Source: Eubacteriales bacterium
Lineage (GTDB): Bacteria; Bacillota; Clostridia; Oscillospirales; CAG-272
Direction of reading: 5' to 3'
NCBI GenBank assembly: GCA_051867975.1
Contig: JBJDZM010000079.1
Coordinates: 44,122 to 108,121, forward strand
DNA: 64,000 nt
Positions within the stretch are counted from its first letter, which is position 1, and each line of letters opens with the position of its first letter. The notes beneath the pieces were generated by a model. That model saw nothing but the letters and a program-made list of their open reading frames with translations, made no database searches and had not been told where the DNA came from. Positions 7,871 to 21,226 of the stretch are shown here, piece by piece. Made by a program: the position numbers and the translations under genes.

Positions 7871-7959
7871 CATTTCCGCGTGTGAAAAACACATTATTTT
7901 AAGGGTGGTCCGCTGCAATGCTCGCATGAACATCCGGATTTTTAAGGAGGGCTTTTAAG

Positions 7960-8307
7960 ATGGATCTTATTAAGGCTTTTACAAACGAGCAACTCAAAAC
8001 AGAGGTACCCCAGTTCAACATCGGTGACACCGTTCGTGTTCACAACAAGATCGTAGAGGGTACAAGAGAAAGAATTCAGATGTATGAGGGTACTGTTATC
8101 GCAAAGCACGAGGGCGGCATCTCTTCTACTTTCACAGTTAGAAGAATCGCTTACGGTTGCGGTGTTGAAAAGACATTCCCCGTCCACTCTCCCAACGTAG
8201 TAGCAGTCGACGTTATCCGCAAGGGTAAGGTTCGCCGCGCTAAGCTCTACTACCTCCGCGGAAGAGTCGGTAAGGCTTCTAAGGTTAAAGAAGATCTCGC
8301 AAAGTAA
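7960..8307 (+). CDS. rplS: 50S ribosomal protein L19
   Basis: 115 aa with [27 protein letters not shown]. Strong AAGGAGG RBS. Confidence 0.97.
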
Positions 8308-17926: not shown

Positions 17927-18181
17927 ATGGATAGAACAGAGAACACTCGTCCTGCACGCCCTGCTATGCGTGCAAAGAGAAAAAAGGTATGTATCTTCTG
18001 CGCTGATAAGGTTTCCTTTATCGATTACAAGGATTCTGCAAAGCTTCGCAAGTTCATCAGCGAGCGCGGCAAAATTCTTCCCAGAAGAGTATCGGGCGCA
18101 TGTGCAGAACACCAGAGAGAGCTTAACACAGCAATTAAGCGCGCTCGCCAGGTTGCACTTCTTCCTTACATTACCGACTGA
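17927..18181 (+). CDS. rpsR: 30S ribosomal protein S18
   Basis: 84 aa with KKVCIFC..K...IDYKD...[15 protein letters not shown]. Confidence 0.97.
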
Positions 18182-18199
18182 TTTAAAGTCAAATAAGAG

Positions 18200-18227
18200 A
18201 CCGCCGAGATTTTCGGCGGTTTTTTGC
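18200..18227 (+). terminator. Intrinsic terminator of rpsF-ssb-rpsR
   Basis: ACCGCCGA/TCGGCGGT stem followed by TTTTTTG. Confidence 0.85.
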
Positions 18228-18339
18228 GTTCGGGTGAGGTTTTACTCTGATAAGCTGTATTCTCTCCGTACAGACATATCTTTGCCGAACATAAAAGACT
18301 TAAATTTTCTTTTATTTTTTAATAAAAAGAAAAAAACTA

Positions 18340-18368
18340 TTGCAAAGTCGGGGAAAGTGTGTTAGAAT
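18340..18368 (+). promoter_or_regulatory. sigma-A-type promoter driving the structured RNA / LRR leader
   Basis: TTGCAA, 17 nt, TGtTAGAAT. Confidence 0.55.
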
Positions 18369-18374
18369 AATACT

Positions 18375-18546
18375 GCCAAACAAATTTAATAAGCAAATTA
18401 TAGGGATTTTTTTCCTTTTTTGACAAGGGAGAATAATACCTTCATTTGTCGTACATATCATCTATGTGAATTTGATAAAAACGCAAATTCCGACTGGTGA
18501 TGTGTACGGAAAAGTCCTTAACATTTGCTTGAAATTTGTTTGGCGA
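18375..18546 (+). ncRNA. Candidate ~170-nt rod-like structured RNA (stand-alone sRNA, 6S-like, or the 5' part of a regulatory leader)
   Basis: The predicted TSS after the promoter at 18340-18368 coincides with the first paired base. There are 32 bp of long-range pairing: 18375-87/18532-44, 18391-98/18523-30 and 18401-11/18510-20. See findings. Confidence 0.35.
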
Positions 18547-18568
18547 CAATTCGGAGTTTGCGTTTTTT

Positions 18569-18598
18569 GTGCGCTGACTTCGGTTGGCGCACTTTTTT
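18569..18598 (+). terminator. Terminator-like hairpin 34 nt upstream of the LRR start codon
   Basis: GUGCGCUGAC-UUCG-GUUGGCGCAC (10 bp including 2 G-U pairs, with a UUCG tetraloop) followed by U6. Confidence 0.7.
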
Positions 18599-18631
18599 AT
18601 ATTTTTTGTTCATTTTATGGAGGAAATGAAA

Positions 18632-21226
18632 ATGAAAAAAACTCTATCCCTAATCCTCGCATTGACACTGATTTGCGGTGTTTTCTCGGCGTGTGCTGAA
18701 ATTCAAACACCGCAGGAAACCACAACACAAGAAAAAGTGACAAATGTCGAGGAAACGACGACCGTTGAAGAAACAACGACTGTAGAAGAAACAACGACTG
18801 TAGAAGAAACAACGACAGAAGAAGCGACTGAACCTGTCGGCTCGGTTGGGCTTGTTTATGAGGTAAATTCCGACGGAACGACCTGCACTATAACAGGCAT
18901 CGGCACTTGCACTGATACGGATTTGGTTATACCGAGCATGATTGACGGATATAGCGTGACGAGCATAGGCGGTTGGGCATTTAAAGATTGCGACAGCATT
19001 ACGAGCGTAACAATCCCTGACAGCGTGACGAGCATAGGCGAGCAGGCGTTCGACAGTTGCACGAGCCTTACAAGCATCACAATTCCCAACAGCGTGACGA
19101 GCATAGGCGGTTGGGCATTTGAAGATTGCGACAGCATTACGAGCATAACAATCCCCGATAGCGTGACGAGCATAGGTGGAAATGCATTCTCTGGTTGCAG
19201 TAGCCTTACGAGCATTTCTCTACCGTTTGTAGGAGCCGAGAAAGATGGTAGTTCAAATACTCGTTTTGGGTATATTGGATATTTTTTTGGAGCCGAAAGC
19301 TACCGTGAGAACAGTAGTTATGTTCCCTCAAGTCTTAAAACAGTAGTAATCACAGGCGGAGAGAGCATAGGCGAAGATGCGTTCTATAAATGCTCCGGCA
19401 TTGCGAGCGTAACAATTCCCGACAGCGTGACGAGCATAGGAGATTCTGCGTTCTATAATTGCTCAAGCCTTACGAGTATAACAATCCCCGACAGCGTGAC
19501 GAGCATAGGCATGTACGCGTTCTCTGGTTGCTCCGGTCTTACGAGCATAACTGTTGATTCTGAAAATACCGTTTATCATTCGGCAGGTAACTGTTTGATA
19601 GAAACAGAATCAAAAACGCTTCTTGCAGGATGCCAAAACAGTGTTATACCCGATGATGGCAGCGTGACGAGCATAGGCGAGATATCGTTCTTAGATTGTT
19701 CAAACCTAACCAGTATCACAATTCCCGACAGTGTAACGAGCATTGGCAATTTTGCGTTCTGCGGTTGCTCTGGTCTTACGAGTATAACTATACCATTTGT
19801 CGGAGCTGAGAAAAACGGCACTGAAAATACTCATTTCGGATATATTTTCGGTGCCTCAAGTTATGGTGAGAACAGCAGTCATGTTCCCTCAAGTCTAAAA
19901 ACTGTAACAATTACCGGTGGCACAATCATAGGCGAAGATTCGTTCTATCATTGTGATGGCCTTACGAGCATAACGATACAGGACAGCGTGACGAGCATAG
20001 GCAATAGTGCGTTTATATCGTGTTCCGGTCTTAAAAGCGTTTCAATCGGAAAAAGCGTGACAAGCATAGGCGATTGTGCGTTCTCATGGTGCGAAAGCCT
20101 TACGAGCGTAACAATTGGGGAGAATGTGACCAGCATAGGCGATTATGCGTTCAACGGTTGCTCCGGACTTACGAGCATAACGATCCCCGACAAAGTAACA
20201 AGTCTGGGCGATTATGCGTTCTGTTCATGCTCAAGCCTTGCGAGCATAACAATTGGCAACAGCGTAATGAACGTAGGCGACTCTTCATTCTTCTCTTGTG
20301 ATAAATTAGTAGAAGTTTACAATCTCTCGGCACTTAATATTACCAAAAAATCAGAAGATAATGGACATATCGGACTCAACGCGCTGGTTATCCATACCTC
20401 AGCAGATGAGCCAAGAAATGTATTTACGGACGAACACGGATACACTTTCTTTGAGAACGGCAATTTTTGTTATTTGCTCGGTTACACAGGATCCGATATA
20501 GAATTGACCTTGCCGGAAAATTGCAACGAAAAAAATTATTATGTTTACAAACGTGCGTTCTCTGGTTGCTCCGGACTTACGAGTATCACAATTCCCAACG
20601 GCGTGACGGGAATAGGCGATTATGCGTTCTCCGATTGCTACGGACTTACGAGCATAACAATTGGTAACGGCGTGACGAGCATAGGCGATTATGCGTTCTC
20701 ATGGTGCGAAAGCCTTACGAGCGTTACAATCGGTAACAGCGTGACGAGCATAGGCTGTGGGGCGTTCAATCGTTGCGAGAGCCTTACGAGCGTAACAATT
20801 GGGGAGAATGTGACCAGCATAGGTGATAGTGCGTTCTCTGGTTGCTCCGGACTTACGAGTGTTCACATTAAAGATATAGCAGCATGGTGCTCCTTATCGT
20901 TTGAAAGTCCTTCAGCAAATCCCTTATATTATGCACACAACTTGTACGTGAATGGTGAATTGGTAATAGACCTTGTTATTCCCGACGGCGTGACGAGCAT
21001 AGGCGAGATATCGTTCTTAGATTGTTCAAACCTAACCAGTATCACAATTCCCGATAGCGTGACGAGCATTGGCTATCATGCGTTCTATCGTTGCGATAGC
21101 CTTTCGGACATCACCTTTATAGGCACAATGGCACAATGGAAATATTCTATCAGCAAAGACGACAATTGGATCTACATTACCGGCGACTACACGATCCATT
21201 GCACCGACGGTTATATTAACAAATAA
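18632..21226 (+). CDS. Large BspA-type leucine-rich-repeat (LRR_5-like) surface lipoprotein
   Basis: ATG 18632 lies 7 nt after a GGAGGA RBS. The signal peptide MKKTLSLILALTLICGVFSAC carries a lipobox, followed by an EETTTV linker. About 22 modules of roughly 23 aa follow, of the form SVTSIGxxAFxxCxxLTSITIPD. Confidence 0.85.
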   Translation: MKKTLSLILALTLICGVFSACAEIQTPQETTTQEKVTNVEETTTVEETTTVEETTTVEETTTEEATEPVGSVGLVYEVNSDGTTCTITGIGTCTDTDLVIPSMIDGYSVTSIGGWAFKDCDSITSVTIPDSVTSIGEQAFDSCTSLTSITIPNSVTSIGGWAFEDCDSITSITIPDSVTSIGGNAFSGCSSLTSISLPFVGAEKDGSSNTRFGYIGYFFGAESYRENSSYVPSSLKTVVITGGESIGEDAFYKCSGIASVTIPDSVTSIGDSAFYNCSSLTSITIPDSVTSIGMYAFSGCSGLTSITVDSENTVYHSAGNCLIETESKTLLAGCQNSVIPDDGSVTSIGEISFLDCSNLTSITIPDSVTSIGNFAFCGCSGLTSITIPFVGAEKNGTENTHFGYIFGASSYGENSSHVPSSLKTVTITGGTIIGEDSFYHCDGLTSITIQDSVTSIGNSAFISCSGLKSVSIGKSVTSIGDCAFSWCESLTSVTIGENVTSIGDYAFNGCSGLTSITIPDKVTSLGDYAFCSCSSLASITIGNSVMNVGDSSFFSCDKLVEVYNLSALNITKKSEDNGHIGLNALVIHTSADEPRNVFTDEHGYTFFENGNFCYLLGYTGSDIELTLPENCNEKNYYVYKRAFSGCSGLTSITIPNGVTGIGDYAFSDCYGLTSITIGNGVTSIGDYAFSWCESLTSVTIGNSVTSIGCGAFNRCESLTSVTIGENVTSIGDSAFSGCSGLTSVHIKDIAAWCSLSFESPSANPLYYAHNLYVNGELVIDLVIPDGVTSIGEISFLDCSNLTSITIPDSVTSIGYHAFYRCDSLSDITFIGTMAQWKYSISKDDNWIYITGDYTIHCTDGYINK
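18749..18820 (+). repeat. In-frame 18-bp tandem repeat (about 4 copies) encoding the (E-E-T-T-T-V)n linker
   Basis: GAGGAAACGACGACCGTT / GAAGAAACAACGACTGTA x2 / GAAGAAACAACGACAGAA. Confidence 0.9.
19662..19728 (+). repeat. 67-bp perfect direct repeat, copy 1 (inside the LRR gene)
   Basis: Identical base for base to 20988-21054. Confidence 0.95.
20988..21054 (+). repeat. 67-bp perfect direct repeat, copy 2 (inside the LRR gene)
   Basis: Identical to 19662-19728. A further 44-bp perfect pair lies at 20096-20139 / 20780-20823. Confidence 0.95.

Follow-up and report, generated by a model that had tools for sequence, protein, structure and literature searches.

The stretch of DNA considered here, referred to as the window, comprises 64,000 nucleotides (nt) of an Eubacteriales bacterium (contig JBJDZM010000079.1). 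Positions 18340-18631 lie between rpsF-ssb-rpsR and the gene of a BspA-type leucine-rich repeat (LRR) lipoprotein. They are read as the promoter and 5′ leader of the LRR lipoprotein mRNA, with the leader attenuating transcription and belonging to a family not catalogued before (probability about 0.6). That this gap encodes a strongly folded, structured leader RNA is real and strongly supported. The leader is one copy of an uncatalogued family that precedes many accessory genes of gut Clostridia (Oscillospiraceae) and of their phages. The promoter, a rod-like domain and the helices A:B, B:C and C:D are conserved and co-vary in approximately 60 copies of this family. A preliminary description of the window, made from the sequence alone, had proposed a self-contained unit from promoter to terminator, and had hesitated between a stand-alone RNA and a riboswitch or attenuator in front of the ribosome binding site. 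The self-contained unit is borne out, and the attenuator is the best reading of it. The features of the element are as follows.

18340-18368, + strand: sigma-70 promoter, -35 TTGCAA, 17-nt spacer and extended -10 TGtTAGAAT (consensus scan)
18375-18544, + strand: rod domain with paired 5′ and 3′ ends and an internal three-way junction (minimum free energy (MFE) folding, alignment, duplex tests)
18375-18387, + strand: 5′ strand of helix P1, GCCAAACAAAUUU, beginning at the probable +1 and forming 13 base pairs (bp) with 18532-18544
18388-18392, + strand: A-rich bulge or internal loop (G/U)AAUA(A), with AA unpaired in the MFE structure; it recurs in most copies
18422-18450, + strand: P2 hairpin, GACAAGGGAG...CUUC.UUUGUC, an arm specific to the long form (MFE)
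18451-18507, + strand: P3 hairpin with a 12-bp stem and an apical mini-hairpin A′:A (18468-18474 with 18484-18490)
18477-18493, + strand: segment A, AAAAACGCAAAUUCCGA, exposed on the tip of the rod; 17-bp complement of segment B (18551-18567)
18532-18544, + strand: 3′ strand of P1, AAAUUUGUUUGGC (pairing, family covariation)
18545-18550, + strand: conserved linker GACAAU, found as GAC(A)AWU after P1 in nearly all copies
18551-18568, + strand: segment B, UCGGAGUUUGCG, with its U-tract; 3′ arm of A:B and 5′ arm of the antiterminator
18547-18586, + strand: antiterminator hairpin B:C, 18547-18563 with 18571-18586 (MFE, prefix folds, family pairing)
18569-18598, + strand: intrinsic terminator T2 (C:D), a 10-bp UUCG-capped hairpin followed by U6 (terminator scan)
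18619-18623, + strand: Shine-Dalgarno (SD) sequence GGAGG, with the start codon ATG at 18632 (read from the sequence)
18632-21226, + strand: gene of the BspA-type LRR lipoprotein, 864 amino acids (aa) (Pfam LRR_5, E = 2.6e-155)

Alternative helices of the leader

The helices A:B, B:C and C:D are mutually exclusive, in the manner of a trp leader. As in an attenuator, an alternative helix (B:C) overlaps the 5′ arm of the terminator, together with its UUCG loop, is completed first and is conserved by complementarity. An anti-antiterminator, segment A, competes for the antiterminator strand B. Prefix folding places the formation of B:C at the moment when C emerges, ahead of D. The stem of T2 pairs 18569-18578 with 18583-18592, is followed by T6 and ends 34 nt ahead of the LRR gene. 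In the window, the energy of B:C (-16.6 kcal/mol) is the same as that of the terminator C:D, and the whole-leader folds are isoenergetic, at -85.1 kcal/mol for the rod with B:C and -84.8 kcal/mol for the rod with C:D.

The helix between 18482-18493 and 18551-18562 (12 bp, one G-U pair included) interleaves with the rod. It had been described as a pseudoknot or an alternative pairing, and as an alternative pairing it is conserved throughout the family. It is also longer than first noted, as AAAAA at 18477-18481 pairs with UUUUU at 18563-18567 to give 17 bp. Together with the U-tract, this A:B helix is a candidate first terminator, termed T1.

Segment A has the consensus (G)RUAAAAAYGC...YCC, is partly held in a small apical hairpin and changes along with B across copies. 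Segment B has the consensus NGGRG....GCGUUUUU and ends in U5-6. The A:B helix comprises 12-17 bp in every copy that contains A, and the centres of the two segments are found as CACGC/GCGUG, CACAUA/UAUGUG, GCGUAG/CUAUGC, CACAA/UUGUG and GUGCAUCCU/AGGAUGACAC. As the variable rods cannot be aligned by MAFFT or RNAalifold, the energies of cognate and non-cognate duplexes were compared without alignment. Cognate A:B duplexes average -17.7 kcal/mol against -13.0 kcal/mol for non-cognate ones, which is matched by 0 of 10,000 permutations. In a MAFFT alignment of 12 short forms of the element, 79% of A:B cells are paired in register, against 38-61% when the partners are slid.

The antiterminator is likewise preserved across the family, with 89% of B:C cells paired against 29-53% when slid. 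Among 500 shuffles, 3 reach this percentage and 15 reach the covariation score. Cognate B:C duplexes have -16.0 kcal/mol and non-cognate ones -12.3 kcal/mol. Two loci, L115 and L162, have wholly different sequences of B and terminator and keep the pairing AAAUAGGAUG:CGUCCUAUUU. Within B, the YGGRGN stretch is paired to the terminator loop and upper stem (N′CUUCGG), and the conservation of the ‘UUCG’ loop is explained by this pairing in B:C. A terminator hairpin with a U-tract is present in every main-family copy, and its stem pairs covary (RNAalifold).

Promoter and rod domain

The consensus scan recovered the promoter of the preliminary description, TTGCAA-17-TAGAAT with an upstream TG. It ends 6 nt ahead of G18375 and is kept in an alignment of close relatives. 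The transcript very probably starts at G18375, since a canonical -35 and extended -10 promoter ends 6-7 nt before the closing helix in 25/25 family copies. This constant distance supports the start near 18375 that had been claimed. The rpsR-to-LRR gap of approximately 450 nt had been called the largest non-coding gap of the window, and it is either the largest or tied with one other. The assignment of ATG 18632 as the start of the LRR gene is correct, as the SD sequence GGAGG lies 8 nt upstream and the gene begins at the identical ATG in relatives.

The rod consists of an outer helix of 13 Watson-Crick pairs (18375-18387 with 18532-18544), a second helix of 8 bp (18391-18398 with 18523-18530) and a third of 11 bp that includes 2 G-U pairs (18401-18411 with 18510-18520). 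Every pairing listed previously was recovered at its position. The example given of a small hairpin, 18452-18468, was imprecise, as this stretch belongs to a 12-bp helix of 18451-18462 with 18496-18507. Both the MFE and the centroid structure of the window copy are almost continuously paired around a three-way junction, and the apical loop at 18475-18483 has an unpaired probability of ~0.9-1.0.

Folding of 18375-18600 by RNAfold gives -85.1 kcal/mol, compared with -45.2 +/- 4.2 kcal/mol for 200 dinucleotide shuffles (z = -9.41), and 0/200 shuffles are as stable as the native sequence. The AT-richness of the region, for which a shuffled control had been called for, therefore does not explain the fold. 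The MFE of the rod is -66.8 kcal/mol on the + strand and -49.9 kcal/mol for its reverse complement. This asymmetry is due to the G-U pairs and indicates an RNA that is read from the + strand.

Conservation among close relatives

Nine close relatives, found on contigs encoding an identical S18 protein, carry the element with 84-91% identity. Among them there is no variation in the outer rod, in segment B or in the terminator. Changes in P3 are compensated, with GUACAUAUCAUC/GGUGAUGUGUAC becoming GUACACUUAUAUCC/GGGUAUAGUGUAC and two pairs altered on both sides. In this alignment 94.7% of rod cells are paired, against at most 50.4% when the partners are slid. The comparison of the regions downstream of rpsR, suggested in the preliminary description, finds the element conserved, with two compensatory pairs in P3.

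One relative, L001, diverges directly after the -10 box, and homology resumes in what is left of the C-terminal part of the LRR gene. The leader and most of the gene have been lost together. The promoter of L001 is now fused to the LRR remnant. Both L001 (4296-4640) and L007, at the same position, contain an insertion of ~340 nt after the rpsR terminator, which ends in a second copy of that terminator (compare window position 18227).

The LRR locus is hypervariable among strains. The gene encodes 864 aa in the window and 571, 597 and 621 aa in contigs with the identical S18 protein (L002-L006). Two Logan contigs, L009 and L010, end exactly at the leader terminator (…GGCGCACT and …GGCGCACTTTTT), which probably reflects a break of the assembly where the strain-variable region begins and not the end of a transcript.

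Architecture of the family

Copies of the family share a fixed order of promoter, 5′-terminal helix, variable covarying rod, segment A at the tip, segment B after the rod, and terminator. P1 mostly takes the form GCCAAA.../...UUUGGC-GAC, with the usual strands GCCAAACAAA and UUUGUUUGGC. Its first 10 bp are conserved and the following three covary as UA, CG, AU or GC (RNAalifold). Pattern scans over-represent GCCAAAC, and the apparent invariance of P1 is partly an ascertainment bias. In the GenBank phage MT835503.1, P1 is fully replaced with compensation, by GUCACACGAAC/GUUCGUGUGAC. This replacement and the covarying pairs argue that P1 is a helix and not merely a sequence motif. The bulge motif (G/U)AAUA(A) follows P1 by 3-5 nt in most copies.

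The sequence of the rod differs between copies, and its length ranges from 98 to 240 nt. Short forms (~100-120 nt) are simple hairpins without P2. Long forms (~146-170 nt), to which the window copy belongs, add P2 as a conserved AAGGG-[..UAUA]-CCCUUUU hairpin and thereby acquire a three-way junction. The two rod strands, tested without P1, pair at -21.4 kcal/mol when cognate and at -8.9 +/- 3.4 kcal/mol when non-cognate, a result that 0 of 10,000 permutations match. The cognate strand is the best of 24 partners in 21 of the 24 copies compared, and the sense strand is more stable than the antisense strand in 26/28 copies. The linker between rod and B remains constant at 5-7 nt despite the variable length of the rod. 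In most copies an SD sequence and start codon follow 20-45 nt after the U-tract.

Some copies depart from this order. In L160, A is missing and B, C and D are retained. L096 and L112 contain a tandem pair in which both copies possess a promoter and a terminator of their own, and the first copy has no following open reading frame (ORF). The first-copy A pairs with the B of the second copy at -15.0 kcal/mol and with its own B at -15.4 kcal/mol. Many long-form copies have the same B sequence.

Two IMG/VR loci, L190 and L185, have flanks that are 100% identical (130 nt upstream and 62 nt downstream) and rods that are 77% identical. The stems of the rod are replaced with pairing kept, and the apical part is conserved. 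This divergence between identical flanks suggests either exchange between copies or fast evolution specific to the hairpin.

Distribution and downstream genes

The ~60 copies comprise those of the close relatives and of two metagenome-assembled genomes (MAGs) of Oscillospiraceae, ~32 on contigs from metagenomes, over 20 on viral contigs and a single one in the GenBank phage MT835503.1. In a genome scan, the best matches to the S6 protein of the window were uncultured Oscillospiraceae MAGs with 86-90% S6 identity. An nhmmer profile of the element matched two of these MAG loci (L013 and L033), 3-5 kb upstream of rpsF. The copy in L013 precedes another BspA-LRR gene and that in L033 the gene of a GLUG/Flg_new protein. 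The element travels with the downstream gene and not with rpsR.

Metagenomes were scanned with a shared 20-mer, TTTGTTTGGCGACAAWTNGG, which returned 91 stretches. Approximately 32 of these are clear members, and the remainder are chance matches or an unrelated repeat. Scans of IMG/VR added the >20 copies on viral contigs. One of these copies, which drives a small divergent ORF, is adjacent to the portal and major head genes, and another precedes the gene of a sigma-70-family protein on a contig that also has an integrase. Plasmid matches consist of the terminator only. An nhmmer search over 1.3 Mb of loci found a single tandem pair only.

The downstream genes are heterogeneous. The products include BspA-LRR, Flg_new/GLUG and Cu_amine_oxidN1 proteins, a TPR lipoprotein and DUF6273 proteins. 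The enzymes are a GT2 glycosyltransferase, an AMP-binding enzyme and an N6/N4 DNA methylase. Other products are a RelB antitoxin, a GmrSD_C-like protein, a zinc-ribbon membrane protein and many small membrane proteins, and the phage genes comprise a sigma factor and morons. The specific ties to surface proteins and to rpsR suggested by the window are not supported, as homologous leaders sit at other loci and precede unrelated accessory and phage genes.

Comparison with catalogued RNA families

Searches with cmscan against Rfam 15 gave no match at the gathering score in the 64-kb window, and at E <= 10 only noise matches in 18150-18700. There was also no Rfam match in 15 further family members and 8 viral loci. 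A full-text literature search for the core sequence found no paper, and the core sequence is absent from the first 200 of the 408 supplements of Fremin & Bhatt 2021. The lack of a match to the T-box, GEMM-I, ydaO and SRP families, noted in the preliminary description, is confirmed by the Rfam result. The T-box (RF00230), c-di-GMP-I/II, ydaO, SRP and all Rfam aptamer classes had no model match, and the C4, IsrK and SeqA families showed no homology in the window or in 23 other loci.

A resemblance to 6S RNA had been raised. The element has no RF00013 match at E <= 10 and no large central bubble, its short forms are simple hairpins, and it is multi-copy and lies directly upstream of ORFs. A metabolite riboswitch is not supported either, as the heterogeneous downstream genes, which share no pathway, and the variable rod interior argue against an aptamer. 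Members have no conserved ligand-binding core in common, their rod interiors are wholly different and the short forms lack whole arms such as P2. Ribosome-mediated attenuation was rejected on inspection of the window leader, in which no leader ORF with a usable SD sequence was seen; a GUG-CGC-UGA mini-frame lies in the terminator, ~14 nt from an SD-like GGAG. Resemblances to CsrA (GGA) and Hfq (ARN) sites, a K-turn and a tRNA-like acceptor stem were seen by eye only and are not claimed.

Proposed mechanism

Transcription would start at G18375, and the first 170 nt would zip into the P1-closed rod, exposing the 17-nt segment A at its tip. B would emerge directly after the rod and end in its U-tract, with the terminator C:D and U6 to follow. 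Pairing of B with C would block the terminator and allow RNA polymerase to enter the gene. With the rod alone, such read-through is the expected default, since D has yet to be transcribed when B:C is completed. A pairing of A with B would instead produce a helix that abuts the U-tract as a first stop signal, and C would be freed for the terminator to form as a second. The decision of the switch would lie in whether A reaches B. In this model termination would be regulated.

Segment A would act mainly in trans, with the exposed tips of previously made leader RNAs pairing with B on nascent transcripts. This would constitute an autogenous control of the dosage or immunity type, like that of the phage P4 CI RNA. 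Trans-acting self-regulation is the leading hypothesis on account of the geometry, as A lies at the far end of the rod and B is tethered to its base by the 5-7-nt linker. The interleaving of A and B with the rod has a pseudoknot topology, so that pairing in cis would require the short linker to reach along the entire helix, and in some copies the rod is a simple, junction-free hairpin. Simple pairing in cis is further disfavoured because the rod, at -36 to -81 kcal/mol, has already formed when B is transcribed.

In all copies examined, 7-10 nt of A stay single-stranded at the tip of the rod. The cost of opening A is only 2-14 kcal/mol, and net A:B binding to the intact rod amounts to -10 kcal/mol on average. 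This exposed toehold and favourable net binding are indirect support for action in trans. RNAcofold returned a ddG of 0 for the trans interaction, as intermolecular pairs within a hairpin loop are not representable in it. The tandem copies of L096/L112 with their matching specificity, the loss of A in L160 and the shared B of the long forms fit action in trans. The constant linker beside a rod of varying length, and the joint loss of leader and gene in L001, favour it.

Several points weigh against the attenuator reading or its trans form. The 5′ end of the transcript, its termination and the read-through are each an inference. The column-wise covariation of A:B is weak, with 3 both-side changes and a score reached by 57/500 shuffles, in part due to misaligned indels. 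The permutation tests treat copies as unrelated and ignore kinship, and the energetics of A:B on the intact rod are a duplex-plus-opening approximation. If all transcripts carry A, the trans model predicts permanent repression, barring a modulated level or access of the RNA. The conserved bulge, P2 loop and GACAA linker have no assigned role. A serious rival is a factor in cis, whether protein or ligand, by which the rod would be opened or stabilised.

A more general claim would be that these leaders form a new class of regulatory RNAs which come from the sense strand and target themselves. A 5′-anchored, hyper-stable rod would show the key (A), which pairs with the lock (B) in trans beside a U-tract to cause termination, while an unpaired lock forms the antiterminator. 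Key-lock pairs would diversify into specificities, and morons and accessory genes of gut Clostridia and their phages would come under a protein-free control of dosage or immunity. This claim is tentative, and the balance of probability is against it.

If the attenuator reading is true, it would add a regulatory RNA family that is abundant and has no entry in Rfam 15. The family occurs in bacteria that are among the least tractable yet most common in the gut (Oscillospiraceae) and in their phages. It precedes genes for host and phage interactions, such as those of surface proteins, restriction/modification, toxin-antitoxin, a phage sigma factor and prophage morons. If the trans model is also true, the family would provide a compact, protein-free and programmable key-lock terminator switch. 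If it is false, a new RNA-binding regulator of accessory genes would await discovery.

Alternative explanations

The alternative that survives best is an attenuator controlled by a factor in cis. A protein or small molecule would bind conserved unpaired parts of the leader (the apical loop, the P2 loop, the bulge (G/U)AAUA(A) or the GACAA linker), block A or open or lock the rod, and so set A:B against B:C within the same molecule. Most known Firmicute attenuators are of this factor-controlled type, including T-box, PyrR, TRAP and LicT. The identical relay of helices fits this explanation, which would also account for conserved unpaired motifs that are otherwise unexplained. However, the downstream genes share no pathway, the short forms are entirely without P2 and there is no known family core. 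The 5-7-nt linker also cannot bring B to A with the rod intact, so that a helix of -36 to -81 kcal/mol would have to melt. On this evidence a cis-acting factor is doubtful, though it has a real chance.

A stand-alone small RNA (sRNA), 6S-like or other, ending constitutively at the terminator and acting on other targets or binding a protein, would leave the gene to incidental read-through. The unit does span its own promoter to its own terminator, the first copy of L096/L112 is followed by the next promoter and not by an ORF, and in ~6 copies the next ORF is >130 nt away. These points are offset by the SD sequence and start codon 20-45 nt after the U-tract in most copies, where there is no space for a promoter, and by the conserved antiterminator B:C, which is pointless beside a constitutive terminator. 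There is no 6S match or central bubble, and no target complementary to A other than B was found within the 64-kb window. An sRNA alone is unlikely.

Slightly less probable again is a passive stabiliser or insulator of the mRNA, in which the 5′ helix blocks decay that depends on the 5′ end, perhaps with an RNase III site, and the hairpins merely shield a portable cassette of promoter and gene (a moron) from transcription nearby, without any switch. It is consistent with a 5′ end that is paired from +1 in all copies, with cargo typical of morons and accessory genes (phage contigs included) and with the swapping of rod stems between otherwise identical phage loci. It leaves unexplained why the A/B and B/C complementarity persists through changes of sequence, and why part of A is constantly single-stranded.

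A DNA-level element (an invertible switch, the ends of a miniature inverted-repeat transposable element (MITE) or an attC-like site) is highly improbable and largely refuted: 13-bp perfect inverted repeats do lie between a promoter and a surface-protein gene at a locus variable among strains, with a strong promoter-like site inside on the minus strand and GCCAAAC/GTTTGGC ends that we take to resemble the R″/R′ boxes of integron attC sites, but A has one orientation in all ~50 copies that contain it, G-U pairs favour the sense strand in 26/28, conservation and co-variation reach past the repeats to B and the terminator, cassette arrays are absent from the 1.3 Mb of loci searched and the minus-strand -35 is not kept in the closest relatives. 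An inverton, a MITE and an integron attC site were each rejected on these observations.

Relation to known systems

The trp leader of E. coli and the pyr, trp and T-box leaders of B. subtilis likewise contain three overlapping, exclusive helices, a hairpin with a U-tract ahead of the ORF, and an antiterminator that is completed ahead of the terminator. Unlike these, the present family is without a match in Rfam and contains neither a leader peptide nor a T-box or other conserved binding core. Its first segment lies on the tip of a rod closed at the 5′ end, and its A:B helix abuts a U-tract.

The CI RNA of phage P4 brings about premature termination by pairing to sites in its own leader that are complementary to it (PMC4825925). 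As with CI, and also N15 CA and P1/P7 c4, the family has a sense RNA of an untranslated leader that is complementary to later sites on the same transcript. It also occurs in phages and prophages, and one look-alike lies upstream of a Bro-N antirepressor-type ORF. In contrast to CI, it has no sequence or Rfam relationship to these RNAs, its action in trans is a deduction and most of its cargo is unrelated to immunity.

In the attenuation of pT181, pIP501 and pAMbeta1, RNA:RNA pairing on the nascent leader also selects between antiterminator and terminator, and specificity resides in a short, variable, complementary loop stretch. The plasmid regulator is transcribed from the opposite strand, whereas A and B of the family are on the same strand and the same transcript. 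The IsrK promoter of Gifsy-1 gives both a short terminated RNA and a long read-through mRNA, of which the short regulates the long in trans (PMC4825925). IsrK differs in that it activates translation and lacks the layout of rod, A:B and B:C, and its model RF01394 is not matched by the family.

6S RNA is similar in its length of ~170-190 nt and in its paired 5′ and 3′ ends that form a rod. The family differs from it in being multi-copy, in having no large central bubble and in being followed by an attenuator and an ORF. The cwpV and flgB switches of C. difficile are similar in that an inverted-repeat segment between a promoter and a surface-protein gene sets a leader terminator. Here, no inverted orientation is found in ~50 copies, the whole segment is self-complementary with G-U pairs on the sense strand, and B lies outside the repeats.

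Look-alikes and minor observations

Viral look-alike hairpins share the 10-bp ends GCCAAACAAA/UUUGUUUGGC and lie behind TAnnTTTG (-7 box-like) promoters of the Bacteroidota type. They are located at L192 3531-3680, L215 455-660 and L214 8635-8870, and on the minus strand of L193 (rod at 7882-7992 of the reverse complement), where the downstream ORF encodes a Bro-N domain protein. They also have a U-run, and within them lies a complement of the 3′ flank. Several have only the long-range helix and U-run without a separate terminator, which supports A:B with its U-tract as a stop signal in itself. The ORFs behind the look-alikes in L192, L193 and L215 start with AUGCCAAACAAA, repeating the 5′ end of the leader, so that the closing helix has a 3′ strand antisense to this start region. 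The look-alikes may be either homologous or convergent.

A near-consensus sigma-70 promoter lies inside the rod of the window on the minus strand (18426->18397, TTGTCA-18-TATAAT, 11/12 match) and faces rpsR. A transcript from it would overlap, in antisense, the sense promoter and the initial ~15 nt of the leader. Even in the closest relatives its -35 box is not conserved, with GATAG replacing GACAA in the L005 group.

An unrelated, highly repeated element shares only the scanning 20-mer with the family. It starts with TTTTGTTTGGCGACAAATTGGCGACAAAAGC...TTTATGTCAATTT, has the tandem GGCGACAA and is present in L093, L097, L099, L102, L109, L111, L116, L119, L120 and ~25 further metagenome loci. 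Several contigs with this TTTTGTTTGGCGACAAATTGGCGACAAAAGC repeat are labelled human gut metagenome. At the start of the L158 contig (1-40), a perfect hairpin of minimal size, GCCAAACAAAATTATA-CATA-TATAATTTTGTTTGGC, replaces the full rod; it may be a fold-back assembly artefact at the contig end.

The U/C-rich sequence UUUUUUUCCUUUU in the 5′ strand of the window rod (18407-18419) is 92% complementary to the start-codon region AAAAUGAAAAAAA (18629-18641), and is also partly complementary to the SD sequence. The P2 of long forms carries a conserved ..ACCCUUUUU, which is anti-SD-like. A translational layer of control through this complementarity to the SD sequence and start region is possible.

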